Of a DNA stretch of 64,000 bases, positions 1 to 64,000 are shown piece by piece (within the stretch, counting starts at the first letter, position 1; every line of letters starts with the position of its first letter). Both the position numbers and the translations under genes were made by a program. Location of the stretch: NCBI GenBank assembly GCA_947085205.1, contig CAMTVO010000014.1, positions 32,001 to 96,000 of the forward strand. The letters are read 5' to 3'. The notes below the pieces were generated by a model, which worked only from the letters and a program-made list of their open reading frames with translations, did no database searches and was not told where the DNA came from. Origin of the DNA: an uncultured Nitrospiraceae bacterium. Lineage in GTDB: Bacteria > Nitrospirota > Thermodesulfovibrionia > Thermodesulfovibrionales > Dissulfurispiraceae.

Positions 1-865
1 CGCGCAATGATCTCAACAGGTCTTTTATCACTTCTCTCGTTACATCCTCAATAATGTCAGGGACGTTGCTTGATATTGCCTCTTTCACAGAATCCTGTAT
101 TGTTAAAGAAATATCGCTGCTTATTATACTGGAAACCTTTTCTTCAATGGTCTGTTTTATTATTTCGTATATCTCTTCCTTTGCAGGTAATTCTACTTCC
201 TTTAACTCGTAACTCTTAACTCCTAACTCCTCACCGCCTTTCAACGCCTCGGCGAGCTCTTCTGCAAATCCCTTTGTATCCTCAGATAAAGCAGCCTTAG
301 CTTCATATTCCTCATCCGCCATTACCTCTTCGGCCTTTTCTTCTGCAATAGGAATTTCTTCGTCCCATTTCGGCTCTTCCCGAGTTTGCGGAGTAGCCGA
401 TACTGCTAATTCCACTGTAGCTTCAGGGGCATCTTCTGTTGCGGCCAACAACTCCTCTTCTATCGCCTCTTCCGGCTCCGTCTTCTTTGACTGCTCAAAG
501 CCGACAAGCAGTGCTTTCACTTTGCTTATCAACTCCTGCGACTCGAATGGTTTAATGATAAAGTCGTCTGCAAAAACAGATTTTGCATATTCTTCGTCGA
601 AAGGTTCAAAGGCACCTGCAAGTAAAATTACAGGAATAGCTGCAGTAGCCATATCATTTTTAATCTTTTCGCACAACTGATACCCGTTCAATTTAGGCAT
701 CTCGATGTCGGCAAGAATTATGTCGGGTTTAAAAGACTCCATTGCATTTAATGCCTGCTCGCCGTCATTAAATGCCCTTATTTCGAAATTTTCCGACGTA
801 AGGACAAGCTCAACCACCTTCTGTATGGTGAGGCTATCGTCTGCTAATAATAGTTTATAGGGCAT
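1..865 (-). CDS. RomR-like response regulator (receiver domain, acidic linker, helical C-terminus); truncated at the window edge
   Basis: Not in the ORF track; read manually from the ATG at 865: MPYKLLLADDSLTIQKVV...ADIEMPKLNGYQLCEKIK...PVILLAGAFEPFDEE...DDFIIKPFESQEL, followed by a Glu-rich linker. Resembles the Myxococcus RomR receiver domain. Confidence 0.8.
   Translation of the reverse strand, partial: MPYKLLLADDSLTIQKVVELVLTSENFEIRAFNDGEQALNAMESFKPDIILADIEMPKLNGYQLCEKIKNDMATAAIPVILLAGAFEPFDEEYAKSVFADDFIIKPFESQELISKVKALLVGFEQSKKTEPEEAIEEELLAATEDAPEATVELAVSATPQTREEPKWDEEIPIAEEKAEEVMADEEYEAKAALSEDTKGFAEELAEALKGGEELGVKSYELKEVELPAKEEIYEIIKQTIEEKVSSIISSDISLTIQDSVKEAISSNVPDIIEDVTREVIKDLLRSLR
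203..230. repeat. In-frame heptamer array (TAACTCN)x4 inside the RomR-like gene
   Basis: taactcg-taactct-taactcc-taactcc; encodes ELGVKSYEL. Confidence 0.8.
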
Positions 866-878
866 AATTAACCTCTTT

Positions 879-984
879 CGTTATAGCGTTTATTGCGTTG
901 AGCGTTATAGCGTAAAGCGTTGAGCAATATAAGGAAATAAATAATTTACGCATAACTCTATAACTCTATAACTCTATAACGCTA
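879..984. repeat. Inverted pair of 7/8-mer arrays (GCGTTATA-like, then TAACTCTA)
   Basis: Left arm 879-925, right arm 952-984, AT-rich spacer between them. Confidence 0.85.
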
Positions 985-988
985 CTTG

Positions 989-1360
989 TCAAGACTTTTT
1001 CTTACTCCTGTAGTCTTCTATAGCCTTTCTCAACGCATCGGCGCCCAGATTCGAACAGTGCATTTTCTGAGGCGGTAGACCTCCCAATTCCTGAGCCACC
1101 GCCTCCTTTGATATAGCAAGGGCATCATCGAGAGTCTTCCCTTTGACCATTTCTGTAACCATGCTGCTTACTGCAATGGCAGCGCCGCATCCGAATGTCC
1201 TGAACTTTGCGTCTACTATCCTGTCGTTTTCGACCTTTATGAATATCTGCATCGCATCCCCGCATATCGGGTTGCCTTCCATGCCGACGCCGTCTGCATC
1301 AGTGATTTCGCCCACATTTCTCGGATTCATAAAATGGTCCATTACCTTTTCAGAATACAT
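989..1360 (-). CDS. iscU: Fe-S scaffold protein IscU/NifU-N
   Basis: YSEKVMDHFMNPRNVG, GNPICGD, FGCGAA, LPPQKMHCS. Confidence 0.95.
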   Translation of the reverse strand: MYSEKVMDHFMNPRNVGEITDADGVGMEGNPICGDAMQIFIKVENDRIVDAKFRTFGCGAAIAVSSMVTEMVKGKTLDDALAISKEAVAQELGGLPPQKMHCSNLGADALRKAIEDYRSKKKS

Positions 1361-1372
1361 TTTTATCCTCCT

Positions 1373-2600: not shown

Positions 2601-2670
2601 TAGGCGATAGGTCATAGACTATAGGCAATAGGTTTTTGTTTTTTACCTATAGCCTATTGCCCATTGCCTG
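2601..2670. repeat. Inverted pair of heptamer arrays (GGCRATA / CCTATTG) overlapping the tusA 3' end
   Basis: taggcgataggtcatagactataggcaatagg ... cctatagcctattgcccattgcct. Confidence 0.85.
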
Positions 2671-3478: not shown

Positions 3479-4159
3479 CTACTTTGCCTTTTCCTCAAAA
3501 AGCTCTTCTTCCTGTTTGTCCTTCATCTTCTTGACAAGCTCTTCGTAGGAATCCCGCAGAATGATCTTATTAAATTGTGTCCTGTAATTGCTTACGAGGC
3601 TTACGCCTTCTATCACCACATCATATACTTCCCATTTGCCATTCTTTTTGAGGAGCCTGTAATGTATAGGTATTTCAACATTTCTCTTTGTGATTACCTT
3701 GCTTTTTACAACAGAGTATTCGCCCTCTATATCCTCACCCACATACAAAATCTTTTCGTCTTCATAGGCCTCAATCTTTTTAATATATGACCTTTCAAGA
3801 AGGTCGGCATATAACGGCACAAACTCTTTTCTTTCCTCTGGCGTCCTTTTTCTCCAATGAAGGGCGAGGGACCTCTTTGCCATTTCCTCAAAATCAAATC
3901 TCTCGGAAATAGTCTTGCGGATTGCAGTCCTTCGCTCCTTTGTTTTTTCCGGCTTCTTCAGTTCCTTGTTTCTTAAGATATCAAGAACCTTATCAACGGT
4001 CTGCTTTACCTGATTTGTAGGCTCACCAGCATAGGCATCAGAAGCAGTGAATAGTGAATAGTGAATAGTGAACAGCAGAAGCATAACGAGTAACGAGTAA
4101 TGAGTAACAAGTTTTTTGAAATCTGAAATCTGAAATCTGAAATCTGAAATTTTTCCCAT
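3479..4159 (-). CDS. mlaC: MlaC/Ttg2D phospholipid shuttle protein
   Basis: FDFEEMAKRSLALHW, WEVYDVVIEGVSLVSNYRTQF. Confidence 0.9.
   Translation of the reverse strand: MGKISDFRFQISDFKKLVTHYSLLVMLLLFTIHYSLFTASDAYAGEPTNQVKQTVDKVLDILRNKELKKPEKTKERRTAIRKTISERFDFEEMAKRSLALHWRKRTPEERKEFVPLYADLLERSYIKKIEAYEDEKILYVGEDIEGEYSVVKSKVITKRNVEIPIHYRLLKKNGKWEVYDVVIEGVSLVSNYRTQFNKIILRDSYEELVKKMKDKQEEELFEEKAK
4046..4151. repeat. Three consecutive heptamer arrays (AGTGAAT, TAACGAG, TGAAATC) encoding the MlaC signal peptide
   Basis: 4, 4 and 5 copies; encode ISDFRFQISDF, LVTHYSLLV and LFTIHYSLFT. Confidence 0.9.
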
Positions 4160-4169: not shown

Positions 4170-5579
4170 CTATCTTATCTCTTTCAAATCCAATCCTGTT
4201 GCATACAAAAGATTTGCGAATGATATCCTATGATTATATATAGAGCGTAGATTATCTGCCTTCATCTGTGAGTAAGCTACCGCTGCATCAGCCACATCCT
4301 TTGCATCGCCTATCCCGAGGTCGAAGTTAGCCACTGCCGCAACAAGCCACTTCCTTGCATTTCTGTATGCCTTTTCTGTCTCTATGATATTCTTCCTTGC
4401 CTCTTCCAGATCGAGATATGCCTTTCTCACCTGAAACGGTATGGCATCGTCGGCGAATTTCTTCTTCTCCAGCAATTTATAATATTCAGCCTGAGCCTCC
4501 TTCACCCTTCCCCCTGTTATTCCGAAATCGATAGACCACTTAAGCCCCATAAATGCAGCGCTGTAGGCATGGTTAAAGTAATCGTAAATATACGGGTTAT
4601 CCACCTTATCCCTGTTTGTTGCACCTGCTACAGATGCCTTCAGTCCTACAAATAACTGAGGATAGTAGTTGCTCTTCTCCACACCGATAAGGGCATTCCT
4701 CGCATTCAAACCCTCTTTAAGCTGGATAAATTCAGGTCTGAGTTCCACAGCATTTTTCAAATAGTTATTCAGCTCCTCGGGGATTCTGCTTTCCGGCGTG
4801 AGAAAAGTGTCTGCAGTATCGAATTCGGTTCCTCTTGGAAACCCCATGCTTGTTACAAGGGCATCTGTTGCAAGGGCAATTCCCTTTTCTGCCTCGTTGA
4901 TGTTTTTGTCAACCGCTCCTAAAAATGTCCTGAGTTTGAATAGATTGAGTTCGTCCGCCCACGGAGAGTCTATTTCTATCTGTTTCTCCGCCTTTTTTAT
5001 CGATTCGACAAGTTCGTCCTTGACTTCCAGAGCAAGGTTTCGCATATCCTTTGCAAGGAGAAGGCCGTAATAAAGTTCCTTTGTTCTTAAAACTATATCA
5101 GATGTCTTCTTATCCACACCTGCCTTTGCCACTTTTATGCCGCTCGAGGCAGCCTCTCTATAACTGCTTATCTTGCCGAATGTGTATATGGGCTGGATTA
5201 ATGTGACCTCTGTACTGCCGAATATCCCGTTGACAGTTGTTCCTACAGATGTATTAACATTTGGGCTTATCTGCTCCCTCTTTGCCCTTGGAGACGGCCC
5301 TGTAATTGCGAGTACCTCTATCTGAGGATAGACTGCCGAGTCTGCCTGGAGCTTTTTTGACTTATACGCTTCCTCTTCGTATCGTGATTCGCCTATCTCG
5401 GGGCTGACCTCGATAGCCTTTTTTATGCACTGCTCGATATTTAAAACAATCTTTCCACTATCTTGAGCATATGCAGGAATGGCTAAATTAGTAGACAGTA
5501 AGCAGTAGACAGTAGACAGTAAAAAAAGAAAAATTTTTTTTGACTGCTGACTCCTGACTGCTGACTGCTGACACTTCAT
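4170..5579 (-). CDS. TolC-family outer membrane protein
   Basis: Signal peptide and two OEP repeats (YPQI...QPIYTFG; YYPQL...NLLYATG). Confidence 0.85.
   Translation of the reverse strand: MKCQQSAVRSQQSKKIFLFLLSTVYCLLSTNLAIPAYAQDSGKIVLNIEQCIKKAIEVSPEIGESRYEEEAYKSKKLQADSAVYPQIEVLAITGPSPRAKREQISPNVNTSVGTTVNGIFGSTEVTLIQPIYTFGKISSYREAASSGIKVAKAGVDKKTSDIVLRTKELYYGLLLAKDMRNLALEVKDELVESIKKAEKQIEIDSPWADELNLFKLRTFLGAVDKNINEAEKGIALATDALVTSMGFPRGTEFDTADTFLTPESRIPEELNNYLKNAVELRPEFIQLKEGLNARNALIGVEKSNYYPQLFVGLKASVAGATNRDKVDNPYIYDYFNHAYSAAFMGLKWSIDFGITGGRVKEAQAEYYKLLEKKKFADDAIPFQVRKAYLDLEEARKNIIETEKAYRNARKWLVAAVANFDLGIGDAKDVADAAVAYSQMKADNLRSIYNHRISFANLLYATGLDLKEIR
5490..5575. repeat. Heptamer arrays (AGTAGAC, TGACTGC) in the TolC N-terminus
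   Basis: Encode CQQSAVRSQQS and LLSTVYCLLST. Confidence 0.9.
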
Positions 5580-7672: not shown

Positions 7673-7732
7673 TTAAATTTGCTTTAAAGCAATGACCTTT
7701 ATATCCAAAGTCAGTGGTAAGGGTTATAATTC

Positions 7733-7772
7733 GCTCATGGCTCATAGTTTTATAGTTTTTTGCTATGAGCCA
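7733..7772. repeat. GCTCATR / TATGAGC inverted heptamer pair overlapping the pyrD stop
   Basis: gctcatggctcatag ... ctatgagcca. Confidence 0.7.
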
Positions 7773-8701
7773 ATTTTCAGGCTTCCGATGATTTCATTAA
7801 TATCAGAAAGCCCTTCCTCTTTAAGAAATCTCTCAAGACCTTCTATTATTTCAATTGTTGCAGTAGGATTTACAAAATTAGCGGTTCCGACAGCAACAGC
7901 TTTTGCTCCTGCTATCAAGAATTCGAGGGCATCATTGGCGTCCATTATTCCGCCCATTCCGATAATCGGTATCTTTACAGCCTTATAGACTTCCCACACC
8001 ATCCTAACTGCAACAGGCCTGATTGCAGGTCCTGAAAGCCCACCGGTGACATTTGCAAGCGCCGGCTTGCGTTTTTTAATATCAACTACCATTCCGGTTA
8101 TTGTGTTTATCAAAGAAACCGCATCAGCGCCTGAATTTTCTGCAACTTTTGCCATAAATCCAACATTGGTAACATTAGGAGAGAGTTTTACTATCAGGGG
8201 GAGTTTTATTGCCTTCCTGACAGCAGTTACGGCCTGTTCCATTATTTTTGGGTCTGTGCCGAATACTATCCATCCTGCCTGCTTGTTCGGGCAAGAGATA
8301 TTCATTTCAAGGGCATGGACTCCTTCAGCGCTGCTTAATTCCTCTGCTGCCTGAACATATTCATCTATGCTGTCTCCAAAGAAATTTGCAATGACAGGAG
8401 TCTTGAACTTTTTCAGAAATGGGAGTTTCTCCTCTACGAAAGCCTTAACTCCTATATTCTGAAGACCAATGGCATTGAGCATTCCTGCTGGCGTTTCGAT
8501 AACCCTCGGTGTTGGATTTCCTTGTCTTGGCGCAACAGAAAGCCCCTTGACCACGATTGCGCCAAGCCTGCTTAAATCAAGAAATTCAGAATATTCCTCG
8601 CCATATCCGAATGTCCCTGATGCAGTCATCACAGGATTTTTGAGCCTTAATCCAGCGATGTCTATCTCAAGATTTATTTTCTTTTCTTTACTTAAATCCA
8701 T
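7763..8701 (-). CDS. pyrD: Dihydroorotate dehydrogenase B, catalytic subunit
   Basis: ASGTFGYG, NAIGLQN, NISCPN, KLSPNV, GGLSGPAI. Confidence 0.95.
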   Translation of the reverse strand: MDLSKEKKINLEIDIAGLRLKNPVMTASGTFGYGEEYSEFLDLSRLGAIVVKGLSVAPRQGNPTPRVIETPAGMLNAIGLQNIGVKAFVEEKLPFLKKFKTPVIANFFGDSIDEYVQAAEELSSAEGVHALEMNISCPNKQAGWIVFGTDPKIMEQAVTAVRKAIKLPLIVKLSPNVTNVGFMAKVAENSGADAVSLINTITGMVVDIKKRKPALANVTGGLSGPAIRPVAVRMVWEVYKAVKIPIIGMGGIMDANDALEFLIAGAKAVAVGTANFVNPTATIEIIEGLERFLKEEGLSDINEIIGSLKIGS

Positions 8702-9567
8702 TACTCCAACACTCCATCACTCCATACAATGTCTTCTATATCAAAGACCGGCCCCTCTTTACATACCCTTTTATAAGTAAACAGCGAATGGTGAGCGGTG
8801 AGCAGTTGAGATTCGTTTTTATTACTGCTTCCTGCTTCCTGCTCACTGCTTACCGTCTTCACCACACATCCCAGACATGCACCGACTCCGCATGCCATGT
8901 GTTCCTCCAGAGAAACATAACACTTTATATCTTTGTCTGCGACAACTTTGGAAAGTTCTTTCAGCATTGGTGTAGGGCCGCAAGCATAAATCGGTAATGC
9001 GTAATGCGTAATGCGTGATGGGTTAAGAAAATCGCTTAAAGAATCTGTTATCAAACCCTTCTTGCCTTCAGAGCCGTCATCCGTTGCTATAAACAATTCC
9101 TTTGAAAATGTTTTTGCCTCATTTAGCATTACCAGTTCTTGTTTATTCCTTGCGCCATAAAAAAGATATGCCTTGCTTTTAAATTTCTCCAGAAGATGCA
9201 ATAAAGAGGCAATACCAATTCCGCCGGCAACCGCTATGAAATCCCCATGAGGTTCCGGATAGCTGTTACCGAGCGGCCCGATTACATTGATTACATCGCC
9301 GCCTTTAAGATTAGATAAACATGATGTGCCTTTCCCCCTAATCCTGTAAAGAAACCGGAGCGTGTTATCTTCATATCCGAAAATACTAAATGGTCTTTTT
9401 AAGAGAGGGTCGTAAGTGTCGCCTGCCTGAAGCATATAAAATTGTCCCGGCTCCGGAATCTTTACAGTAGACAACGGACTAAGGCTTAATAATTTGAAGC
9501 GCTTGTTTAAAGAGATATTGTCGGTTACATCTGCTTTGAAATATTTATTAGACAAAGCTGATCTCAA
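8701..9567 (-). CDS. pyrK: Dihydroorotate dehydrogenase electron-transfer subunit
   Basis: [25 protein letters not shown]...CKEGPVF. Confidence 0.93.
8776..8856. repeat. Inverted heptamer pair inserted in frame in the pyrK Fe-S loop
   Basis: ggtgagc-type arm 8776-8810, ttcctgc-type arm 8822-8856. Confidence 0.8.
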
Positions 9568-10042: not shown

Positions 10043-10118
10043 GAAGTAGGAACTGAGAAGTAAAAACTGGGAAACAAAAGTTCCGTTTTCAACTTCTAAC
10101 TTCCAACTTCATACTTCT
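10043..10118. repeat. Inverted heptamer pair (GAAGTAR / YAACTTC) upstream of greA
   Basis: gaagtaggaactgagaagtaaaaactgg ... caacttctaacttccaacttcatacttc. Confidence 0.8.
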
Positions 10119-14850: not shown

Positions 14851-15593
14851 CCAATCATGCCTGCCGGGTCCACCGGAATCCCGTTTTTCCTTAACTCGAA
14901 ATGAAGATGATGGCCTGTCGACCTTCCGGTTGAGCCTGACAGCGCAATTACTTTCCTTTCGTCTACGGTGTCTCCTGTTTTTACAAGATTTATTGAATTG
15001 TGCGCATAAAGACTGCTCAGTCCATTTTCATGTTCAACAATCACAGTGTTGCCGTAACCTGCTGAAAAACCGCTGAAAACAACCCTACCTGGCGCTGACG
15101 ATATTACCGGAGAGCCTTCCGGCATAGCTATATCCACTCCGTTATGGTGTTTAAGCCGTCCGTCGATAGGGTCGTGCCTTAGGCCATACCCTGAGGTTAT
15201 TTTAGCTTCCGCAGGAAGTCTCAACTTTAGTTCAGAGCTTAGAGTTACCCCCCAATTCCCCCCCTTAGTAATGAGGGGATTAGAGGGGGGGGTAATTGGC
15301 TCGTTACTACCGGAAAATGGAGTTCTCAAAAAGAAATCGCCTATGCCTATCCCTCTGTCTGCTAAGGATTTGGCCATTTCAGAGGTTATGTAAGGCATAT
15401 AAGTAGAAATAGTCCTGTCTTTACCGAAAGATGTCTGTTCCATCATTATCTTCAGGAACTCGTTCAAAAAAACGGTTTCCACCTGTTTTGCCATTGCCTT
15501 CGGGTCAGACGAGTTCTGAGTTCGGAGTTCGGAGTTGAGAGCTTTTAACTCCTGACCGCTGACCGCTGACTGCTGACTGCCGACTATCTTCAC
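14847..15593 (-). CDS. FlgJ-like rod-binding domain fused to an M23 peptidase
   Basis: Follows flgI; AKQVETVFLNEFLK N-terminal domain; HNGVD and STGHHLHFE M23 motifs. Confidence 0.8.
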   Translation of the reverse strand: MKIVGSQQSAVSGQELKALNSELRTQNSSDPKAMAKQVETVFLNEFLKIMMEQTSFGKDRTISTYMPYITSEMAKSLADRGIGIGDFFLRTPFSGSNEPITPPSNPLITKGGNWGVTLSSELKLRLPAEAKITSGYGLRHDPIDGRLKHHNGVDIAMPEGSPVISSAPGRVVFSGFSAGYGNTVIVEHENGLSSLYAHNSINLVKTGDTVDERKVIALSGSTGRSTGHHLHFELRKNGIPVDPAGMIG

Positions 15594-16729
15594 ATTATCA
15601 CCAATTCTGCCTTCAAGCTTCCGGCAGCTTTAATTGCTTGCAATATCGCCACCATATCCTTGGGTGTTACGCCTAAGACATTAAACGCTTTAACCAGTTC
15701 ACCGATTGTTGCCCCTTTCACCTCCACCATGGGCGCCTTTTTCTCCTCTGCCTTTATTTCTACTTTTGGGACAATTACTGTTTCAGCTGTGGGAGGGGCA
15801 AAAGGAGGAGGTTGAACAACCTCGTATTCAACCTTAATCTCTATGGCAAGTCCCCCATGCGCAAGGGCGATTGGACTGATTTTTACATTTTCACCTATGA
15901 CAACTGTACCTGTCCTCTCATTGATAACAACCCTTGCAGGCATATCCACATCTACATTTATAAGTTCGATTTTCGACATCAAATCAACTACCCTGTTTGT
16001 ATAGGTATCCGGAACTTTTATGGAAATAACCGAAGGGCCTTCAGCCTTAGCGAAACTTCCACCGAGAATGTCGTTTATTCCATCGGTTATTTTCTTGGCA
16101 GTCGTAATGTCCTGAACGGTCAATAAAAGGTCTAATCTCTGTTTCTCGTTTAACTGCACAGGGACCTCTTTTTCGACAATAGCGCCATTAGGGATAGCGC
16201 CGACATTCGGATGATTCTTGATTACCTGTGCACCTGTTCCACCAGCCACAAATCCGCCAATAGATACAGGGCCTTGTGCAACAGCATAAACATTACCATC
16301 TGGCCCCTTTAGAGGCGCCATTAAAAGCGTCCCACCCTGAAGGCTCTTTGCATCGCCGATGGACGATACCTGAACGTCGACCTTAGAGCCCGGCTTTACC
16401 ATTGTAGGCAGTTTTGCAGTAACTATTACCGCAGCTATGTTCTTTGTCTTTCCCTTTATATCTGCGGCATTCACGCTGATTCCCATTCTTGTAAGCATAT
16501 TTGCAAACGGCTGGAATATGTATGTCCCGTCCTTATCGCCGGTGCCGTTGAGTCCGACAACAATTCCGTATCCGATAAGTTCGTTCTCCCTTATTCCGGA
16601 AAATGCGGCGATATCCTTAATCCTCTCGGCATGAACGACAGTGAACAGTGAACAGTTAATAGTGAATAGTAAAAAACAGAAAAAAACAGTTCGTTGCATT
16701 TTTTTAAGATACTCAGTTTTCCGGTTCAT
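15590..16729 (-). CDS. flgI: P-ring protein FlgI
   Basis: RIKDI, GYGIVVGLNGTGD, GDAKSLQGGTLL. Confidence 0.97.
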   Translation of the reverse strand: MNRKTEYLKKMQRTVFFCFLLFTINCSLFTVVHAERIKDIAAFSGIRENELIGYGIVVGLNGTGDKDGTYIFQPFANMLTRMGISVNAADIKGKTKNIAAVIVTAKLPTMVKPGSKVDVQVSSIGDAKSLQGGTLLMAPLKGPDGNVYAVAQGPVSIGGFVAGGTGAQVIKNHPNVGAIPNGAIVEKEVPVQLNEKQRLDLLLTVQDITTAKKITDGINDILGGSFAKAEGPSVISIKVPDTYTNRVVDLMSKIELINVDVDMPARVVINERTGTVVIGENVKISPIALAHGGLAIEIKVEYEVVQPPPFAPPTAETVIVPKVEIKAEEKKAPMVEVKGATIGELVKAFNVLGVTPKDMVAILQAIKAAGSLKAELVIM

Positions 16730-16784
16730 CCCTTATACTCCTTTCTATTACTGTTCACTAAGCACTTTACACTATTCACTGCCG

Positions 16785-17513
16785 TTAAAACGGCCATACC
16801 TTGTCCAAAAATCTCACAAGCCAGCCCTGCGACTGCTTGTCATCCAAAACACCGTCGCCGACAAAGTATATCTGGGCGTCTGCTATATACTGTGACAGGA
16901 CTGTATTATTCGGCGATATATCATCAGGCCTCACAATGCCCTTCAATACGAGTATCTCTTTTTCATTGTTCACGACTACCTCTTTTCTCGACTCGAGCAC
17001 CAGATTGGAATTGGGCAGAACCTCCACAACCTTTGCCGTTACAGTGCCTGTAAGTTTTCCCTCTCTCGTGGTATCGCCTTTTCCTTTAAAGTCAGACTTC
17101 CCCTTTCCCTCGACAGACGGAGAAAACACATTTGCCCCTTTGTAAAATCCGCCTAACATAGGGAGTTTATCTACGCCAAAGTCAGTATTCATCCCAAAAA
17201 AATTGTCCAGTCCGTAATCAGCGGATGAATCACGGCTGGCATTGGTGGTAGCCTTTTTAGAAGCGGTCGATTTTTCATTGATTAATATTGTCACAAGGTC
17301 ATTTACCCTCTTAGCCCTTCTGTCCTCAAAAAGCGAAGCGCTGTCCTTCCATAAAGAACCTTCTGATGAGGATGCCTCTTTTTCCTTTGTTTCGACATAT
17401 CTCGGCGGCATAGGAGCATTTTTTATATCGCGCGCGTCCTTGAGACCGGAACAACCAATTAATACAGTGAACAGTGAACAGTGAACAGTGAACAGTAATA
17501 TAGTGCGAATCAT
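16785..17513 (-). CDS. flgH: L-ring lipoprotein FlgH
   Basis: Lipobox LIGC, VVEVLPNSNL, GIVRPDDI, C-terminal WPF. Confidence 0.95.
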   Translation of the reverse strand: MIRTILLFTVHCSLFTVLIGCSGLKDARDIKNAPMPPRYVETKEKEASSSEGSLWKDSASLFEDRRAKRVNDLVTILINEKSTASKKATTNASRDSSADYGLDNFFGMNTDFGVDKLPMLGGFYKGANVFSPSVEGKGKSDFKGKGDTTREGKLTGTVTAKVVEVLPNSNLVLESRKEVVVNNEKEILVLKGIVRPDDISPNNTVLSQYIADAQIYFVGDGVLDDKQSQGWLVRFLDKVWPF

Positions 17514-18265
17514 ATCTTTACCCTCACTGTATCAGGCGATGTAAGAATTCCGCTCACCTCTTTTTTGGACACATCGCATGAAACCTTTGCCGTACCGCCC
17601 ATTACGGCGTCATTTTTGAGCGATCCCTGAGTTGTTATAACCACGTTGCCTCCTTCGACCACAACATTAACCCTCTGTCCCCTTTTAATGCTCAACTGGG
17701 TTGTTAGATGATCGCTCCTTAAAATAACCCCTTGTCCTATGTTCGTCTTAAGCGCTTTTCCTTCCAAATCGTTCATGCTCAACACTGCGCCTGCCGGCAG
17801 TCTCGAACTCTTCTGCTTTACGATATAAAAATCGTCAGCGCTCAGCGTAGTTCCTTTTACAAGAGGCCTTGAGGTTATGAACACATCCACAAGCACATTG
17901 TAAGATGCTTCGACAATTATACTTTTCGTCTCAATCTTCCTGTTTTTAAGACCGACTGAAAAATGAGCCTTATTGCGTCCTGCATATCCGTTCATAACTG
18001 CATTGGCAACCGTATACCCATCCGGGCTTTTTAAGACATCCGCCCCTGAGATTACTCTCAGTCCATTAACTTCGACATCTCCTGAAACAGACTTCTTCAG
18101 TTCATTCAATACTGCCTTTTTAACCGCATCCATCAATTCGACTTGAGCATAGGACTCGGTTATAGTAAGCAGTAAGCAGTAAGCAGTAAGCAGTAATATA
18201 GCAACAAGTAACGAATAACGAGTTTTTTGACTTCCGACTCTTGATGCTTGACGCTCGACGCTCAT
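17510..18265 (-). CDS. flgA: P-ring chaperone FlgA
   Basis: SAF-like domain with IKRGQRV; located between flgG and flgH. Confidence 0.85.
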   Translation of the reverse strand: MSVERQASRVGSQKTRYSLLVAILLLTAYCLLLTITESYAQVELMDAVKKAVLNELKKSVSGDVEVNGLRVISGADVLKSPDGYTVANAVMNGYAGRNKAHFSVGLKNRKIETKSIIVEASYNVLVDVFITSRPLVKGTTLSADDFYIVKQKSSRLPAGAVLSMNDLEGKALKTNIGQGVILRSDHLTTQLSIKRGQRVNVVVEGGNVVITTQGSLKNDAVMGGTAKVSCDVSKKEVSGILTSPDTVRVKI

Positions 18266-42244: not shown

Positions 42245-42247
42245 TAT

Positions 42248-45859: not shown

Positions 45860-45910
45860 AAAGTATAAGAATCGCTCAATTTAGGTTTAAGCCATAAGCT
45901 ATGAGCTATT

Positions 45911-50943: not shown

Positions 50944-51477
50944 CTACTGGGAAGTTTTTTCCTGCAGAACTTTCCCTTTTATAAGGAGCTTTTTTGAAAG
51001 TGATGCAGCTATGTCGCTTTCAATTTGGGCGAGTATCTTGCCTGCAATTTTAGGTTTGAGGGAATTAAGTATTATTACCGCTGTATCTTCGTCGAGTTTC
51101 TCTAATCTTCTTGCAGCCTCTTCAGACGGCATCGACTCGTACATCTTTGCAACTTTGAGCAGGCCTTCCTGAATCTTAATATCTAAAGCCTTCTGCGCTT
51201 CTTCTATCTCCTTTTTCAGTTTTTTATATTCCTCGATTTTCTTTTGAATGTCATCCCTGAGCACCTTCAGTCTTTCCTCCTCCAGAGACTTCTGCGGAAA
51301 TTGTATGGTTTGTTGCTGCTGCTTTTGCTGAGGAGGCTGCTGAGCATGAACCAAAGAGTGAAGAGTGAACAGTGAAAAGTGAAGAGTGAACAAAAAAATA
51401 ATAATGGATAACGAGCAAGAATCGCCGAGTCTATCCAGGAAATTAGAAATATGTTTACTCCTCAACTCATAACTCAT
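50944..51477 (-). CDS. MotE/FlbB/YlxF-like protein (MgtE N-terminal-like domain)
   Basis: Signal or TM segment, coiled coil, KMYESMPSEEAARRL...KIAGKIL; follows fliJ. Confidence 0.75.
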   Translation of the reverse strand: MSYELRSKHISNFLDRLGDSCSLSIIIFLFTLHFSLFTLHSLVHAQQPPQQKQQQQTIQFPQKSLEEERLKVLRDDIQKKIEEYKKLKKEIEEAQKALDIKIQEGLLKVAKMYESMPSEEAARRLEKLDEDTAVIILNSLKPKIAGKILAQIESDIAASLSKKLLIKGKVLQEKTSQ

Positions 51478-51914
51478 AACTGCCTCTTTCTATGGTGTCC
51501 TGTAGCAGCATGCTCGTCTGTCCTTATCTGCTCCTTCCTCTTAGACTCTTTTTTAGACGCAGACTTTTGTTTTTCATCAAGCTTCTCGAATATCTTTTTC
51601 TCTTTTGATGCCTCAACCAGATGCTTCCTTGCATTCTCTACCTGTTTCTCTTTTTCTGAAATAACCTTTTTCTGATGCTGTATCTTAATCAATAAATGTT
51701 CCAGATATTCGCTCAGCTTTTTTATCTCTTCAATATTAACCAACTCATCAGTGCTGCACTCTAATTTTTTGCCGGTTAAATTGTACTTATCTTCCAAGTC
51801 ATAAAGCCTTTTTTCTTCTGCTGCAAGCTCTTTGAGGAGTATTGCAAAGCGGTTTTTTGCCTCATCCTCCTTCCACCTCTTGAGGTTTAAAAGACTTTTA
51901 AGCGGAGTCCGCAT
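51474..51914 (-). CDS. fliJ: Export chaperone FliJ
   Basis: LKSLLNLKRWKED, KIFEKL, EQIRTDE; start set at the ATG at 51914. Confidence 0.85.
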   Translation of the reverse strand: MRTPLKSLLNLKRWKEDEAKNRFAILLKELAAEEKRLYDLEDKYNLTGKKLECSTDELVNIEEIKKLSEYLEHLLIKIQHQKKVISEKEKQVENARKHLVEASKEKKIFEKLDEKQKSASKKESKRKEQIRTDEHAATGHHRKRQL

Positions 51915-56647: not shown

Positions 56648-56727
56648 CGTGATGTGTGAAGCGTAATCCGTGATGAGTTAAAGTAATAAATTTTTTACTC
56701 ATTACTAATCACGCATTACGGATTACG
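56648..56727. repeat. Inverted CGTRATG / CATTACG array pair between flgC and fliE
   Basis: cgtgatgtgtgaagcgtaatccgtgatg ... ttactcattactaatcacgcattacggattacg. Confidence 0.85.
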
Positions 56728-57613: not shown

Positions 57614-58930
57614 CTACCTTTTTATGTCATCGTCCGAAATGTTATATTCCTTTATCTTGTTCCGTATCGTCCTGACGCTTATGCCGAGCAACTGAGCCGT
57701 TTTTGTCCTGTTGCCGCCGGTTTCACGGAGCGTATTGATAATCAGGTCCATCTCCATATTCTTCATCCTGCTCTGGCTGCCTATACCGCTTAACTCTAAA
57801 CTCTGAACCCCTAACTCTAAACTCTTATCTCTGAACTCCTCAGCCGGAGGCAGTAGAACCTCAGAGCGCAATATTACGGCTGTTCTGTAAAGGAAATTTT
57901 CGAGTTCCCTTACATTGCCATCCCAGCTCTTCTTCTTGATATACGACTGAAGCTCCTCAGAAATCTGAAACACCTTTCCCATCTTTTGGGATAATTTCTT
58001 TATAAAAAATTCCGCCAGCGGTATTATGTCTTCACTCCTCTCCCTCAAAGGAGGCAGCCTTATCGGAAATACATTCAGGCGATAATAGAGGTCTTCCCTG
58101 AATTTCCCATTTTTGACCTGTGATAAAAGGTCTTTGTTTGTGGTGGCGATAATTCTTACATCCACAGGAACAGGAGAGCGCCCTCCTATCCTGTCAATCT
58201 CCCTCTCCTGTATAGCCCTGAGGAGTTTTGCCTGAAGATGAAATGCCATCTCGCTTATCTCATCGAGCAGGAGCGTGCCTTTGTCCGCAAGCTCGAATTT
58301 CCCGAGCCGCCTGTCCGCTGCGCCCGTAAAGGCTCCCTTTTCATGGCCGAACAACTCTGCCTCAAGCAGGCTTTCCGATATGGCAGCGCAATTTATAGCG
58401 ACAAAGGGTTTGTCTGCCCTCAGGCTGTTTTTATGGATAATCCTTGCAACAACCTCCTTGCCTGTACCGCTTTCTCCTGATAACAGTACAGTTATATCGC
58501 TCTTTGCCACTTCCCTTATTATGGACATCAGGTGTTTCATTGCAGTAGATTCTGCGACTATATCCGCCTCCTCCGACGGTAGCATCCTGTCGATAACCCA
58601 TTTAAGCGATTCGAATGAAAACGGCTTCATTATATAATCGGTCGCTCCAAGTTTCATGGCATCTACGGCATTTTCTACCGTCCCGTAGCCTGTTATCACA
58701 ATTACAGGAACGAATATCCCTTTTTTCCTTATCTCCTGAAGAAACTCTATGCCGTTCATCTTAGGCATCTTCATGTCTGTTATTATGAGAGAGAAGTCCG
58801 AGAGGTTAAGCTCCGACAGCACATCCACCGGATTGTGGTACACGGCAGGCTTAAAGCCAAACCTCTTCAACGACTCCTTTATCGCCAGAGCCATGTCCAC
58901 TTCATCGTCAACTATTAAAACCTGTTTCAC
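57614..58930 (-). CDS. Sigma54-dependent response regulator (FleR/FlrC-like)
   Basis: Receiver domain, [14 protein letters not shown], Fis-type HTH; upstream of flgB. Confidence 0.9.
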   Translation of the reverse strand: MKQVLIVDDEVDMALAIKESLKRFGFKPAVYHNPVDVLSELNLSDFSLIITDMKMPKMNGIEFLQEIRKKGIFVPVIVITGYGTVENAVDAMKLGATDYIMKPFSFESLKWVIDRMLPSEEADIVAESTAMKHLMSIIREVAKSDITVLLSGESGTGKEVVARIIHKNSLRADKPFVAINCAAISESLLEAELFGHEKGAFTGAADRRLGKFELADKGTLLLDEISEMAFHLQAKLLRAIQEREIDRIGGRSPVPVDVRIIATTNKDLLSQVKNGKFREDLYYRLNVFPIRLPPLRERSEDIIPLAEFFIKKLSQKMGKVFQISEELQSYIKKKSWDGNVRELENFLYRTAVILRSEVLLPPAEEFRDKSLELGVQSLELSGIGSQSRMKNMEMDLIINTLRETGGNRTKTAQLLGISVRTIRNKIKEYNISDDDIKR

Positions 58931-58960: not shown

Positions 58961-60097
58961 CTATAACGCTTTACGCTCTACGCTCAACGGCAGTTTAATA
59001 ACAAACTCCGTCCCTTTCCCGACCTCGCTTACAACATCTATTGTTCCTCTATGAGCCTTTATTATACCTGCGGTTATCGACATTCCGAGACCTGTGCCCC
59101 TGTCCTTTGTAGAAAAGAAGGGCTCGAACATCCTCCGCCTCGTATCTTCATCCATACCGCTGCCTATATCACGTATATAAATCCCAACTTCCCCTGACTT
59201 CTGACTTCTGACTTCTGACTTCTGCACCAAGATTTCTATCTTCCCTCCATCCGGCATTGCGTGAACAGAGTTGAGCAGCATGTTTATAAGCGCCTGTCTC
59301 ATAAGTCCCTTATCTACATACAACCAGCGCTTTTCATCCTCGCTGAGAGAAAGCTGTATATCGCTGTTTGCAAACAGTTCCTTAAACTCATTGCAGGTTT
59401 CCCTGATTAAATCATTTAAGCAATAATACTCAAGTTTCGGTTTTATTTCTTTGGTAAACCTGAGCATATTATCGAGCGTATTGACAAGCGCCCTCACAGA
59501 GTTTGATATTCTGTTTGCGTAGTCGCCGTACTCTGTAGCTTTCAGGTCATTAGAAAGAAGACTCGCAAAAAGCTCTATGCTGCCGAGCGGATTTCTTATC
59601 TCGTGGGCAATCTTCATAACAAGCTCTCCCATTGCGGTCAGTCTCCTGTTCCGCTCATTCTCCGACTCAAGCTGTTTAAGCCTCGTAATATCTTTGAATA
59701 TCAGCACATGGCCAATGATATTTCCAGATTTGTCCTTCACATCCGACCGGGATACGAGGGCATAAAATGGCTTGCCGTTATGCGGCGCTATTACATCTTC
59801 ATGGATTTCTGCTTGTATAGAAGCGCCGCCTATTACATCATCGGCATTAATGCCTAAAAGACTGCTTGCCGCATCATTTATAATCCTTATTACTCCATCC
59901 CTGTCAAAAAATACCACACCGACGTCAATGCTATCGAGAATACTGTTGAGCAACTGTTTTTTGTGTTCAACCTCTTCGGTCAGCAAGCGGACATTATCTT
60001 CAAGCGCGCTGTAATACTGTACAAGCGTGGCAGACGCTGAATTAAAGGTCTCTATCGCCTTATTTAAGAGATCTACATTCTGGTCGCTTTTTGTCAT
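58961..60097 (-). CDS. Cytoplasmic PAS histidine kinase (FleS/FlrB-like)
   Basis: PAS domain, AHEIRNPL, FEPFFSTK, GTGLG; start set at the ATG at 60097. Confidence 0.9.
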   Translation of the reverse strand: MTKSDQNVDLLNKAIETFNSASATLVQYYSALEDNVRLLTEEVEHKKQLLNSILDSIDVGVVFFDRDGVIRIINDAASSLLGINADDVIGGASIQAEIHEDVIAPHNGKPFYALVSRSDVKDKSGNIIGHVLIFKDITRLKQLESENERNRRLTAMGELVMKIAHEIRNPLGSIELFASLLSNDLKATEYGDYANRISNSVRALVNTLDNMLRFTKEIKPKLEYYCLNDLIRETCNEFKELFANSDIQLSLSEDEKRWLYVDKGLMRQALINMLLNSVHAMPDGGKIEILVQKSEVRSQKSGEVGIYIRDIGSGMDEDTRRRMFEPFFSTKDRGTGLGMSITAGIIKAHRGTIDVVSEVGKGTEFVIKLPLSVERKAL

Positions 60098-60104: not shown

Positions 60105-61736
60105 TTACTTTCCCCCCGAAATAATTGCCGCAGCCTCTGCAATCTCTTCGCCTCCGCTTTCAGCCTTTTTCAGATAATCTCTGTTTTTGGCAAGCTTTCC
60201 GTACTGGTACTGTGCCCATTGAAGACTCTTAGGATCTTTTACATCATAGTCCAGCGCTCTTTTGTAATAAGTCTTTGCCTTTGCATAATCCCTCGATATA
60301 TACAGGCAATCTCCTGCCTTTACCGAAGACAGTCCGTCTCCCCTGTCGGATGCCGCAATATAATATCTCATCGCGCTCCGCTTGTCCCCTGTCTTCCAGT
60401 ATAAGTCGCCGAGTTTTGCGGCAATTCTGTAGTCCTTTGCAGCCTTTACAATCTTTGTAAGATATTCTCTTGCAGGCGCATATTTTCCCTGCCTTTCCAT
60501 GATGTCCGCAATCATATATGAAGCCCTGTATAAATAACGGCTGTCGAGGGTAAGAGGAGTAAGAATCTTCTCCGCCTCAGAATACTTGCCTTCCGTTATC
60601 AGCATCTCCGACATGTACAGAGATGCATCTCCCTTTAAAGAACCTTTTAATGCCTTTCTGAGCAGAAGCGCCCCCTCAATTTTTTTGCCGTTTGTTATTA
60701 AGTAACGGGAAGCGTCCAAAATAAAAGGAGCGTCTGCATCGAGATATGGGGCGAATTTTTTAACATACTCTACGGCGTTCGGATCCTTCAAACTTATAAT
60801 GCCCTTAAGCCTTTTTTCTATCTCCGCAGACCTCAGTTTCACGCTCTTTAAATAGGAAAGATATTTCATCGCATTATTAGCATCGCCCTTTTTGTCGTAC
60901 AAAGATACAATCCTCAGTTTGAATTCATCTCCCGGTTCGTAAGGAGACAATTGCAGACCAAGCCTCAAAGCATCGTCCAGCTTTCCTTCTGTTTCATAAA
61001 TATTCATTAAGACCTTCTGTGTCCTAAGCCTTTCGATGCTCGAAACCGGTTTGTCTATTATATTTTTACAAATTCTTTCTGCTTCCTTGAATTTCCGAGC
61101 ATTAAAAAAAATCTGAACCTTATCAACTCTGAAGTCGCTTTCCTTTAAAACCAAATCAGGAATTTTATTAATAGTATTTATTGCTTCTTTTGCAAATCCT
61201 TTCCAGCTATAAACCATTGCCAGTGCATAAAGAGCGCGGTGGTCTGTTTCCAGCATCCTCTTGGGCAGCCCTGCCAAAAGGGACTCTGCTCTCGCAATAT
61301 CGGCTCTTTTTAAAGCCGCTTCTGCCTTTCCGATATCCGCCTTTTCTTTCATGGCAGTTCCGACAGTCTCGAAGTGCTGTTCTGCCTCTTTTATTTTCTG
61401 CAAGTGCAAAGAGATATAGCCAAGCAAAAGATGCGCCTCATCCCTGTATTCCGGTATCTGGGACAAAGAAACAAAGCGATTGAGATTCTGGCGCGCCTCG
61501 TAGTAATTTTTCAGATAGTAATCGGACTTTCCCATCCCGAACAATGCCTTTTCCGACAGAGCGCTTTTAGGGGCCGAGAGAAAGACATCCCTGTAAGTTT
61601 CTTTTGCCTTTAGATAATTTTTTGCCTTTAGATGCCCTTCCGCTGTTTTTATCTTGTCTTCCGAGGCAAAGGCTGAAGTAAGCAGTAAGCAATAGGCAAT
61701 AGGCAGTAAGCAGTAAAAAAACAGTTTTTTATTCAT
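60105..61736 (-). CDS. Secreted TPR-repeat protein
   Basis: Signal peptide ending in AFA; TPR-like helices. Confidence 0.8.
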   Translation of the reverse strand: MNKKLFFYCLLPIAYCLLLTSAFASEDKIKTAEGHLKAKNYLKAKETYRDVFLSAPKSALSEKALFGMGKSDYYLKNYYEARQNLNRFVSLSQIPEYRDEAHLLLGYISLHLQKIKEAEQHFETVGTAMKEKADIGKAEAALKRADIARAESLLAGLPKRMLETDHRALYALAMVYSWKGFAKEAINTINKIPDLVLKESDFRVDKVQIFFNARKFKEAERICKNIIDKPVSSIERLRTQKVLMNIYETEGKLDDALRLGLQLSPYEPGDEFKLRIVSLYDKKGDANNAMKYLSYLKSVKLRSAEIEKRLKGIISLKDPNAVEYVKKFAPYLDADAPFILDASRYLITNGKKIEGALLLRKALKGSLKGDASLYMSEMLITEGKYSEAEKILTPLTLDSRYLYRASYMIADIMERQGKYAPAREYLTKIVKAAKDYRIAAKLGDLYWKTGDKRSAMRYYIAASDRGDGLSSVKAGDCLYISRDYAKAKTYYKRALDYDVKDPKSLQWAQYQYGKLAKNRDYLKKAESGGEEIAEAAAIISGGK

Positions 61737-61803: not shown

Positions 61804-61868
61804 TAGTTCATAGCTGATAGCTCATGGTTAATGGTTTTATCAAGCTATGAGCCATGAGCTATCAGCTA
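61804..61868. repeat. Inverted GCTSATA / TATGAGC array pair
   Basis: tagttcatagctgatagctcatgg ... gctatgagccatgagctatcagcta. Confidence 0.85.
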
Positions 61869-61922
61869 ATTAGTCAATTATCTGACTAAATAAGGCTAAA
61901 GAAAACAGCTTGAGTGTTAATT

Positions 61923-62909
61923 TTATGACAACCCTAATCTCTTCATCTTCTCGATGAGGGTAGTACGGTTAATATTTAAGTACTTAGCAGCCTGACTCTT
62001 CACCCCATTCTGAAGCTCAAGGGCATGGAGTATAAGCCTCTTTTCGTATTCCTCGAGAGCTGCATTCATGTCTATCCCGCTCACGAATGGATTTATATCG
62101 TCATTTTCTATATCGGGCAGGTTCGGAATCTTTCTTCCGGTCATCTTTTCGGGCAGGTCGTAAGGCGTCACAACATCATCATCCTTGAGAACAAGAAGCC
62201 TCTCTATCGTATTTTCCAGTTCCCTGACATTGCCGGGCCAGTGGTAGCTCACAAACATCTTAAGCGTTTCGTCGGTCATCTTTATTGAATTTCTTCCAAT
62301 CCTCTTAGAATGCTTTTCTATAAAGTGGTCGCATAAAAGAGGGATGTCCTCAGACCTCTCTCTCAAAGGCGGTATATCTACCGGTATTACATGAAGCCTG
62401 TAAAATAGGTCTTCCCTAAACCTGCCCGCTGCAACAGCATCTTCAAGGTTCTGATTGGTTGCCGCTATTATTCTTACATCGACATTTACAGTCTTTGTTC
62501 CTCCTATCCTTTCGAAAGACCTCTCCTGCAATACCCTGAGAAGTTTGACCTGAAGTATCGGCTGCGTTTCGCCTATCTCGTCAAGGAATATTGTGCCTCT
62601 GTCGGCAAGCTCAAACCTCCCGACCCTCGATGTTACGGCACCGGTAAACGCGCCCTTTTCATGCCCGAAAAGCTCTGATTCCAGAAGCTCCGTAGGGATT
62701 GCGCCGCAATTGACGGGAATAAACGGCTTAGCAGCCCTTGCGCTCCTGTAATGGATGTTTTTGGCTACAAGCTCCTTTCCTGTCCCGCTTTCTCCGAGAA
62801 TGAGGATAGTGCTGTCAGAATTTGAAACCTTTTCAATCAGTTCATATATGCGTTTAATGGCTTTAGAAGCGCCAATAATTTGAGGGAAGTTACCGTTACT
62901 ATCATCCAT
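61923..62909 (-). CDS. Sigma54 activator with AAA+ and HTH domains only (FleQ/FlrA-like master regulator)
   Basis: IIG...[35 protein letters not shown]; no N-terminal input domain. Confidence 0.88.
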
Positions 62910-62915
62910 GTCATA

Positions 62916-62944
62916 AATATGACACACGGAATACTAAAAGTCAA
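62916..62944 (-). promoter_or_regulatory. Sigma70 promoter for the activator gene (probably leaderless)
   Basis: TTGACT-17 nt-CATATT with an extended TG; 6 nt before the ATG at 62909. Confidence 0.65.
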
Positions 62945-62972
62945 TACAATTATCCATCACTCCAATACTCCA

Positions 62973-64000
62973 TTACTCCGTCTTTTCCAGATTGCCAATT
63001 CTTACCCCGATAAGGCGCACCTTTTTCTTCAATTCTATCCTCCCAAGGCACTGAAAGACAGCCCTCCTGATTACATCAACAGAGTCTGCCGGTTCATTAA
63101 GTGTTTTTGCCCTTGTCTGTATCCTGAAGTCGCTGAATTTCACCTTTACGGTAACTGTACGTCCCTTATAGCCTGAATGTTTCATATCATTGACAACCTC
63201 CCGAGTAAGCTCTGCAAGGCTTTTTGCTATGACCTGCCAGTTTTTTATGTCCTCTTGAAATGTCGTCTCCCTGCTTACAGACTTAGGCTCCCAATGAGTA
63301 ATGAGAGGGGTTTCATCTATGCCGCGTGATGCCTCATAAAGATAGTTTCCAAAGGACTTGCCGAAATGCTCGATAAGTATATCGAGCGGAATTGATGCGA
63401 GTCCTCCGATGATCTCAATCCCCATAGCTTTAAGATACGCCTCTGTCTTTGGGCCTACCCCCCATAGCTTTCTCACGGCTAACGGCCAGATGCGACTCTC
63501 TATGTCTTTTTCTGCGAGTATTGTCAGACCATCCGGCTTCTGCATGTCTGATGCTATTTTCGCAAGGAGCTTGTTCGGCGCAATGCCTATAGAGCATGTC
63601 AGCCCTGTCTTATCCTTTATTCTCTTTTTAATATCATTAACAATCTCCTCCGATGGTCTTTCGATTTGTGATATATCAAGAAATGCCTCATCAATTCCTA
63701 CGTCCTCCATTATGGGAGAGAACTCCCTTAGAATGTTTTTGATTATCCGGGAAACCCTTGAGTATTCCTCATAATCCACAGGAAGGAAAACCGCGTGAGG
63801 GCAGAGTTTATAAGCGGTCCTTAATGGCATTGCAGAATGTATTCCGAACCTCCTCGCCTCATAAGATGCAGTTGATACAACTCCTCTCTTCGTAGGGTCT
63901 CCGTTGCCTCCAATAACTACAGGCTTGCCTATGAGTTCAGGATGCCTCTTCTGCTCAACAGCAGCAAAAAAGGCATCCATGTCTATATGGAGAATGCGTC
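62973..64000 (-). CDS. dinB: DNA polymerase IV (5' end outside the window)
   Basis: RILHIDMDAFFAAVEQ, ASYEAR, IDEAFLD, KLLAKIASDMQKPDG. Confidence 0.96.
   Translation of the reverse strand, partial: RILHIDMDAFFAAVEQKRHPELIGKPVVIGGNGDPTKRGVVSTASYEARRFGIHSAMPLRTAYKLCPHAVFLPVDYEEYSRVSRIIKNILREFSPIMEDVGIDEAFLDISQIERPSEEIVNDIKKRIKDKTGLTCSIGIAPNKLLAKIASDMQKPDGLTILAEKDIESRIWPLAVRKLWGVGPKTEAYLKAMGIEIIGGLASIPLDILIEHFGKSFGNYLYEASRGIDETPLITHWEPKSVSRETTFQEDIKNWQVIAKSLAELTREVVNDMKHSGYKGRTVTVKVKFSDFRIQTRAKTLNEPADSVDVIRRAVFQCLGRIELKKKVRLIGVRIGNLEKTE

Follow-up and report, generated by a model that had tools for sequence, protein, structure and literature searches.

Paired arrays of short tandem repeats have been described in several bacteria. 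In Geobacter metallireducens, tandem hepta- and octanucleotides of about four units form opposite-strand pairs in and between genes (PMC2700814), in Xanthomonas tandem GGGAATC heptamers occur in opposite-strand pairs (PMC4692102), and in Beggiatoaceae TAACTGA is found as direct tandem heptamers (PMC4679880). In the accessible parts of these papers the arrays are read as regulatory or G-quadruplex sites, the bacterial heptamer excess is attributed to polymerase slippage or regulation, and neither series of filled and empty sites nor copied spacers are described; the term 'four helix' is absent from the main texts of the latter two. The arrays presented here were found in a 64,000-nucleotide stretch of an uncultured Nitrospiraceae bacterium (G000:C14:32001-96000; 'the window' means this whole stretch). 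They belong to elements of 50-150 bases, each consisting of a G-rich repeat arm, a short A-rich spacer and a C-rich mirror arm, which are compared below with cassettes whose arms enclose a gene for a four-helix-bundle protein (TIGR02436/PF05635).

The short tandemly repeated repetitive (STRR) sequences of cyanobacteria are also tandem heptamers, and very small mobile repeats have reportedly been treated in a cyanobacterial paper. To our knowledge, PF05635 has no known function. A gene of this family (S23p, PF05635/TIGR02436; structure 2GSC) lies between inverted heptamer arms in the open reading frame (ORF)-bearing intervening sequence (IVS) of the Coxiella 23S rRNA, according to the accessible part of PMC4990558.

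The genome has a size of 1.89 Mb in 65 contigs and is 89.7% complete. The window contains flagellar, chemotaxis and housekeeping genes, and every called gene lies on the minus strand. Relatives are coded G001 etc. and loci L062 etc., and X2, X3, X6, X7 and X8 are other sequencing runs. Since less than 0.2 of the words were present in runs X6, X7 and X8, no claim on the habitat is drawn. An assembly artefact is ruled out by contigs of other runs which carry or bridge elements (X2 43738-44227; X3 5232-5602; X6 200-943, X6 being from another study).

Repeat arrays in the window and in the genome

A scan for period-7 repeats gave 29 matches in the window against a mean of 0.05 in 20 shuffles, and 368 against 3 in the genome. 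The corresponding period-8 values were 5 against 0.4 and 109 against 2, and periods 4, 5, 10, 11 and 13 stayed close to the shuffle level in the same scan. With a stricter array caller, 377 arrays were obtained in the genome, 28 of them inside the window, and none in the shuffle. The excess of such arrays, which had been claimed from the letters of the window only (hereafter the sequence-only reading), is thus far above shuffled sequence, and against the about 35 loci listed there, about 30 can be drawn under lenient limits. A recurrence roughly every 2 kb had also been stated, and the spacing is in fact uneven: the region 18263-36357 is free of strict arrays and contains just two weak loci, at 19865 and 22317.

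A reverse-complement partner at a distance of at most 130 nt was present for 112 of the 377 strict arrays, compared to 14 in the flanks of another array and 6 at random sites; a complement-only pairing control gave 36, which is not independent, since many units are mirror-symmetric. All nine pairs named in the sequence-only reading are present and fold arm on arm, with z values from -2.1 to -8.7 for seven of them and weak folding for two (z -1.3 at 19865-19950, -0.2 at 42166-42244). The G-richer arm comes first, as had been noted: G exceeds C in 41 of 54 5' arms, and C exceeds G in 48 of 58 3' arms. The spacer between paired arms has a median length of 21 nt (quartiles 14-34), and 54 unit families occur among the paired arrays and 143 among all arrays. 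Intergenic arrays had been described as mostly paired; this pairing is real, but comprises 55 of the 108 strict arrays in co-directional gaps.

The 88 distinct pairs are located at co-directional junctions (48), within genes (23), at N-termini (8), at convergent (5) and divergent (3) junctions, and at one edge. According to the gene calls made here, on which these classes rest, the 377 strict arrays divide into 177 gene-internal, 65 N-terminal, 22 C-terminal and 113 intergenic ones, and the intergenic density is about 4.5 times the gene-internal density. Signal peptides and surface loops are also used, so that the preference for gene boundaries stated before looks like tolerance.

Many unit families are mirror-symmetric as circles, and by eye the G-rich strand fits a loose Y-N-A-N-N-R-G pattern. 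Due to this common pattern, unlike arrays still have 4-5 of 7 bases in common. Unit types were not clustered along the contigs of this genome at any distance (300 permutations, smallest p 0.16). Single families do cluster, with four of eight copies of one core on contig C1 and four of six pattern matches within 2.7 kb in G018, both patterns having been drawn from those copies.

Association with four-helix-bundle genes

Three genes of this genome match TIGR02436, and two of them are enclosed by inverted arms. These armed cassettes, on contigs C65 (gmd/fcl-like neighbours) and C23 (rfbH/rfbF-like neighbours, all named by eye), lie between operon genes, with the G-rich arm before and the C-rich arm after the gene. 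The C65 protein matches PDB entry 2GSC with an E value of 1e-14. The third gene (G000:C14 ~122175-122750) encodes a long form of 191 aa, is devoid of arms and is located directly before a gene which by eye encodes a type I restriction subunit.

Among 103 family genes from relatives and other phyla, 81 possess matched inverted arms, compared to 42 of 204 shuffled pairings. Furthermore, the arm unit tracks protein similarity: without correction for kinship, the unit distance is at most 1 in 2% of the pairs below 45% identity and in 43% of those above 65%. Exact equality to some cassette arm unit was found for 18% of the 306 7-mer arrays of this genome, and for 6% with shuffled letters. L075, L073 and L062 were excluded from the family profile, and L136-L138 and L065 from the remnant search and the cassette-arm statistics, as divergent, partial or of the diversity-generating retroelement (DGR) type.

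A family gene is present in 19 of 27 relatives. In sampled stretches, the array density correlates with the family gene count over these 27 genomes (rho 0.51, likewise uncorrected for kinship), and all eight relatives without a family gene show at most 0.5 arrays per 10 kb. The proposal that the arrays belong together with four-helix-bundle cassettes is thus supported, both by the two armed cassettes of this genome and by the 81 armed genes of the family. GxxExxY genes, which had been suggested as another cargo, were not found anywhere in this genome, and none of the scanned window proteins is a PF05635/TIGR02436 protein encoded between arms.

The exact unit of the C65 cassette occurs, besides the cassette itself, in frame in the upstream neighbour gene (L262) and nowhere else in the genome. 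Both genes flanking this cassette contain an in-frame single arm (L262 650-672 and 2115-2161; G000:C65).

In G008, three armed pseudogenes of the family (L067, L122, L126) share the same internal stop and adjoin CRISPR arrays; in L126 the CRISPR array abuts the middle of the four-helix-bundle gene. The twin broken cassettes of G008 were rejected as a case of cassette movement, because they are part of a larger duplication beside the CRISPR arrays. Weak TIGR02436 matches without paired arms were located about 0.9 kb from a reverse transcriptase gene in G005 and G024 (L136, L137); these are likely Avd genes of DGRs.

Different states of orthologous junctions

At the flgH-flgI junction of G007, an arm, a whole four-helix-bundle gene, the start of flgI and a second arm follow each other; the latter, on the right, holds the codons of the FlgI signal peptide, and the left arm is interrupted by a run of N. 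The window (16638-16781) shows the layout of G007 minus the gene and with a different unit. In both genomes the left arm starts 2 nt past the stop codon, with the same five bases.

At the fliL-fliM junction, which carries a plain pair in the window, G005 contains an arm followed by a gene fragment of about 45 codons that runs into the right arm, of which two units are left. This fragment is 98% identical to the full-length protein P0001; the search of species genomes for an intact donor gave distant relatives only (best-ranked 61%, at most 74% identity). The fliL-fliM gap comprises just 12-14 nt in G024, G010 and G011. A fliM span of 1280 nt in L081 was rejected as a FliN cross-match. Additionally, a cassette fills hisA-hisF in G021 and G001, and this junction is clean here. 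All four states, from filled through truncated and empty to absent, were seen when orthologous junctions were aligned, as the sequence-only reading had anticipated for filled and empty sites. Judged from these alignments, cassettes apparently lose their gene by internal deletion, for which there is one clear case (G005) and two weak ones (G008, L114).

Copying of gene-less elements

Whole elements without a gene are copied. A unit of 95 nt consisting of arm, spacer and arm is present in frame in a moeA-like gene and in pyrC, with one mismatch and unrelated flanks, and another unit is 97-100% identical at three sites. One core occurs in eight copies, four with and four against the direction of transcription; its pattern was found in none of 40 relatives. 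Matches of the spacer alone numbered 19 against 2.6 in shuffled sequence at score 24, and 3 against 0 at score 30. In G018, one element type occupies six flagellar junctions; all six are without it in L078 (88% identity). A contig of run X6 that is about 92% identical to the window has two bases in place of 42161-42247, and 109 bases replace 18 at 40346-40365. Near-identical empty copies at unrelated sites, together with this absence at strain level, bear out the mobility proposed before.

The description as 'footprints or empty copies' needs to be divided. The link to cassettes stands, given the filled and truncated sites; footprints alone do not suffice, because hairpins that hold no gene are copied too, and some of these copies lie in frame in housekeeping genes, which a filled cassette would have disrupted. 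An explanation in which each pair marks a past cassette that lost its gene, the empty pairs being immobile, accounts for the sites which are empty here and hold a filled or truncated cassette elsewhere. It is contradicted by unrelated sites with identical spacers and by the 23 of 88 pairs that lie in frame in genes such as pyrK and pyrC, and independent deletions would have to yield the same spacer eight times, so that it is considered very unlikely.

The shared spacers also bear on an origin in place, by slippage of 7 bases and hairpin template switching for the mirror arm, with no copying between sites. Slippage has been proposed for the heptamer excess (as cited in the accessible parts of PMC4692102 and PMC4679880), and it would fit the many single arms and the change of copy number within an arm between 99%-identical genomes. 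It gives no account of common non-repeat spacers or of a gene fragment between arms, and the near absence of arrays in genomes without the family would stay unexplained. As the only process it is extremely improbable, in line with the statement that slippage alone does not explain the arrays; it likely acts on top of copying.

A non-autonomous transposon similar to MITEs (miniature transposable elements with inverted repeats), or to the hairpins formed by repetitive extragenic palindromic (REP) sequences, known as REPINs, could be moved in trans by a DDE transposase or by a Y1 transposase of the REP-associated tyrosine transposase (RAYT) kind. Size, inverted ends, AT-rich core and lineage-specific bursts agree with this, one Y1 transposase is encoded in this genome, and AT flanks both sides of the two youngest copies. 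However, the outer arms of the eight-copy core end at different units, and no common terminal motif was seen, even though the 95-nt copies share their ends. Host bases are replaced at insertion, and the empty site of X6 at 42161-42247 shows no clean duplication. The Y1 gene, on contig C5 near the contig end, has by eye no heptamer arms; Y1 genes do not track the array density, as they are found in 19 of 27 relatives, including the array-free G009 and G039, and none was found in the array-rich G011. A search for a partner transposase sharing the ends, which covered the Y1 family only, gave none. Such a transposon is therefore regarded as unlikely.

RNA-templated writing or homing, in which the four-helix-bundle protein acts like Avd together with a reverse transcriptase (DGR- or DRT10-like), was considered as well. 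Replacement at a homologous site resembles DGR homing, and relatives of the G005 fragment match both PF05635 and PF22296, which we take to be the Avd family. DRT10 makes 7-nt tandem DNA, as stated in the available part of the source, but depends on a reverse transcriptase. No reverse transcriptase was found in this genome at its 89.7% completeness. Among the relatives, 9 of 27 possess one, which does not track the density (six in G003, two in G017, none in G006, G013, G018 and G036), and the array-rich G006 lacks it although it is 98% complete in 9 contigs. The copies in both orientations to transcription also speak against this possibility, which is very improbable. The earlier idea of a repeat-writing enzyme is hence not borne out, with no reverse transcriptase here or in the array-rich G006, G013, G018 and G036. 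The window itself holds no cognate enzyme, as had been noted: among its 64 proteins scanned, no transposase, nuclease or reverse transcriptase was detected.

Replacement and re-use of sites

Out of 67 junctions examined, 20 are occupied here. In array-bearing relatives, and without correction for kinship, the ortholog is occupied in 41 of 84 cases if the junction is occupied here and in 43 of 205 if it is not; G010 and G017, which lack the family, have 1 of 74 junctions occupied. At 39 of the 41 co-occupied junctions the unit differs. In pyrC, rimO and lpxB, the elements in the same loops differ across genomes. At the moeA site, five relatives have about 10 codons and the element puts in about 31; the lpxB element does not change the length, and its right arm varies between genomes.

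Cores and arms are swapped: one inner core was found within two different outer arm types, and arms of unlike units are combined at window positions 4046-4150, 18164-18263 and 51354-51481. Host bases are replaced in the process, and elements apparently survive only where they are tolerated, in gaps, in loops and in signal peptides.

Loci of the window and host proteins

The following loci were identified in the window (z values refer to folding).

203..231: single 7-mer arm, in frame in an ORF that extends beyond the start of the window and by eye resembles a response regulator
879..984: pair of 8-mer arms downstream of nifU/iscU, with a spacer similar to that of the G018 element family; z -3.5
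2601..2670: pair of 7-mer arms upstream of the gene for cysteine desulfurase; z -5.2
4046..4150, minus strand: three arrays with different units and unmatched arms; N-terminus and signal peptide of an MlaC/HpnM-like gene
5490..5572, minus strand: matched pair; n- and h-region of a TolC-family signal peptide; z -4.4
7727..7770: short pair at the pyrD 3' end; z -5.0
8697..8725: single 8-mer arm at the pyrK/pyrD boundary
8776..8855, minus strand: complete pair within pyrK, in frame, adding about 23 residues that G008 and G024 lack
8994..9020, minus strand: single C-rich arm within pyrK, in frame
10043..10118: fliW-greA pair; z -6.2
15511..15585, minus strand: two non-identical arms; N-terminus of an M23 peptidase gene
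16638..16781, minus strand: pair enclosing the flgI ribosome site and start; the right arm is the FlgI signal peptide
17464..17496, minus strand: single C/T-rich arm; h-region of the FlgH signal peptide
18164..18263, minus strand: mismatched arms; FlgA N-terminus and signal peptide
19865..19950: worn pair of 8-mer arms upstream of flgF; z -1.3
22317..22337: single 8-mer arm past the stop of a chemoreceptor gene
36309..36385: 8-mer pair between a MinD-like gene and fliA
42161..42247: fliQ-fliR element of 87 nt; two bases instead in the related strain
43198..43326, minus strand: three arrays in frame; linker of the fused fliO-fliP ORF
43965..44041: fliM-fliN pair
45015..45087: fliL-fliM pair, plain; truncated cassette at the orthologous site of G005
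45885..45910: single arm past the flgE stop
51354..51481, minus strand: mismatched arms; N-terminus and signal peptide of an unnamed exported protein; other units in six relatives
56648..56727: flgC-fliE pair; z -4.5
57792..57838, minus strand: single G-rich arm in frame; linker of a sigma-54 regulator
58966..58989: single arm at the 3' end of a histidine kinase gene
59194..59224, minus strand: single arm in frame; loop of a histidine kinase
61677..61716, minus strand: C/T-rich mosaic arm; signal peptide of a TPR protein
61804..61868: pair upstream of the TPR gene; z -8.7
62959..62979: single 8-mer arm past the DNA polymerase IV stop

Eight exported proteins of the window have a predicted signal peptide, read by eye, whose hydrophobic stretch is encoded by a C/T-rich arm. 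These are the MlaC-like protein, the TolC-family protein, FlgI, FlgH, FlgA, the FliP part of the FliO-FliP fusion, the unnamed protein and the TPR protein. Array-bearing relatives often use other units at these leaders, and the leaders of G010 are ordinary where compared. A stop triplet in some frame is contained in 78 of 88 5' arms and in 49 of 88 3' arms, which fits a reading frame acting as a filter. Within 64 kb, selfish repeats would thus build the predicted signal peptides of eight exported proteins, which would turn junk DNA directly into targeting sequence.

A further alternative is that selection retains the hairpins as signals in the RNA, either as RNase III sites, like the rRNA IVS, or for translational control of the ribosome site which they enclose. 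RNase III excises the Coxiella IVS, which contains heptamer repeats, as far as the available part of the source goes, some pairs enclose the start of the next gene, and G.U exceeds A.C by 52 to 33 at junctions (p 0.05). Overall this ratio is 84 to 69 (p 0.26), and 18 to 28 at internal sites, and better folding of the sense strand was seen in no more than 43 of 79 cases. Beside this, the presence of elements differs between close relatives, no Rfam match was obtained for the window, L262 or L263, all sites being in or between protein genes as opposed to an rRNA helix, and the copying would be left unexplained. Selection of this kind is thus quite unlikely to be the explanation.

RNA splicing was rejected, since the only joint seen in the RNA run X8 (8776-8867) also occurs, with short sides, in the DNA run X6 and so likely represents the allele of another organism. 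Long joints that seemed to skip sequence connect arrays of like unit and are repeat artefacts. Among the contigs of one RNA run, one covers 618-943 and extends into the element, and no RNA-only joint was present among the matches listed.

Some further features of the window were noticed. At 42514-43608, fliO and fliP form one ORF that matches both families, with a linker made of heptamer arrays; the stop-to-stop frames of G008, G005, G024 and G010 likewise read through it. A second, unrelated repeat family of REP-like palindromes of about 30-60 nt occurs at 45600-45890 and 50190-50850, and the stretch near 45830-45860 has more than 12 close copies in the genome. Two flgE-like hook genes (562 and 438 aa) lie in tandem at 45911-48937. 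The 391-aa protein encoded at 29015-30190 has a CheW match at its N-terminus and a short CheZ match near its end, and at the corresponding junction of G008 (window genes 30214/29015) an extra short ORF with 21-nt repeats lies between cheA and the CheW fusion.

Proposed mechanism

The best reading is that the arrays are cassette-derived mini-elements copied by short-homology overwriting, and it has a slightly better than even chance of being correct. The hairpins would arise by internal deletion of heptamer-armed four-helix-bundle cassettes, and most empty elements are likely to descend from cassettes. With no transposase of their own, the gene-less hairpins would spread by copying at short homologies over existing arrays or a few host bases, possibly through ectopic gene conversion or a template switch from one heptamer to a related one. 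Such recombination or template switching is suggested because the ends are variable, host bases are replaced and parts are swapped. Pairing of the hairpin would keep both arms matched; whole pairs, inner cores and single arms would all be movable in this way, and selection would keep the elements in gaps, loops and leaders. The four-helix-bundle protein is a possible helper.

Several observations weigh against this reading. Ten of the 19 gene-bearing relatives have no array in the sampled stretch, and the arm units of both resident cassettes are rare among the arrays of this genome. Most spacers keep no trace of the four-helix-bundle gene, and the search for family remnants in the spacers of this genome, with 3058 flanks in all, gave none above control. 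For the roughly 20 codons at fliL-fliM of G008 and L114, which are probable remnants of the N-terminal part of the gene, the best match among about 2000 proteins is a family member, which is weak (E 0.17 and 0.066). The differences between G018 and L078 and between the window and X6 may each be gain or loss, and movement was not seen directly. The AT on both sides of the 95-nt copies can be read as a target duplication; the comparison with orthologs speaks against clean insertion, at a protein identity of only about 75%. Site re-use can equally be explained by repeated independent insertion at few tolerant sites. Finally, the kinship among the relatives means that the density correlation, the link between unit and protein and the occupancy odds ratio are overstated.

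In its boldest form, which is rather doubtful, the proposal would make PF05635 proteins hairpin chaperones, enabling armed cassettes, along with derivatives that lack the gene, to copy themselves into related arrays and replace these without a transposase. This would explain the heptamer excess of many bacteria and give this very large family a function, signal peptides and loops being a by-product.

Comparison with known systems

A literature search, with most subscription journals outside, found no published link of PF05635 cassettes to dispersed heptamer pairs and no report of copied empty pairs. The arrays here fall into the class of STRR or heptameric long simple sequence repeats, a purely descriptive one defined by over-represented, mostly intergenic tandem heptamers. 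In REP/REPIN-RAYT systems the RAYT gene is flanked by its own REP sequences, which carry a conserved tetranucleotide foot. Here, the Y1 gene on C5 is by eye without arms, and no common end motif was seen among the 54 unit families.

MITEs and the palindromic elements of Rickettsia are short, non-coding hairpins with lineage-specific bursts and in-frame insertion in unrelated genes, as described in the available part of PMC10969869. The elements studied here agree with MITEs in being shorter than 500 bp, non-coding and multicopy with inverted ends. Unlike MITEs, they have arms of tandem arrays and replace host bases. A fixed terminal repeat was not seen, nor was a constant target duplication beyond the AT beside the two 95-nt copies, and the search of the Y1 family gave no partner transposase. 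In the trnL intron of Nostoc, a repeat-built stem-loop (P6b) has repeatedly been replaced by another class at one site, and mobile elements are suspected, according to the accessible part of PMC4476775. That case, as far as it is described there, concerns one locus and two classes, whereas here the replacement is genome-wide, with more than 50 unit families, donor-like identical copies and a linked gene cassette.

This genome ties both the heptamer excess and PF05635 to a testable copying process. It offers young donor-copy pairs, one junction with the whole range from filled through truncated and empty to absent, and sites of element replacement. In comparison to the Coxiella IVS, which sits in rRNA, the elements lie in mRNA operons and inside ORFs, are mostly gene-less and occur in hundreds of copies. 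New are the series of states at orthologous sites, the near-identical empty copies, the strain-level absence and the counted turnover of units.

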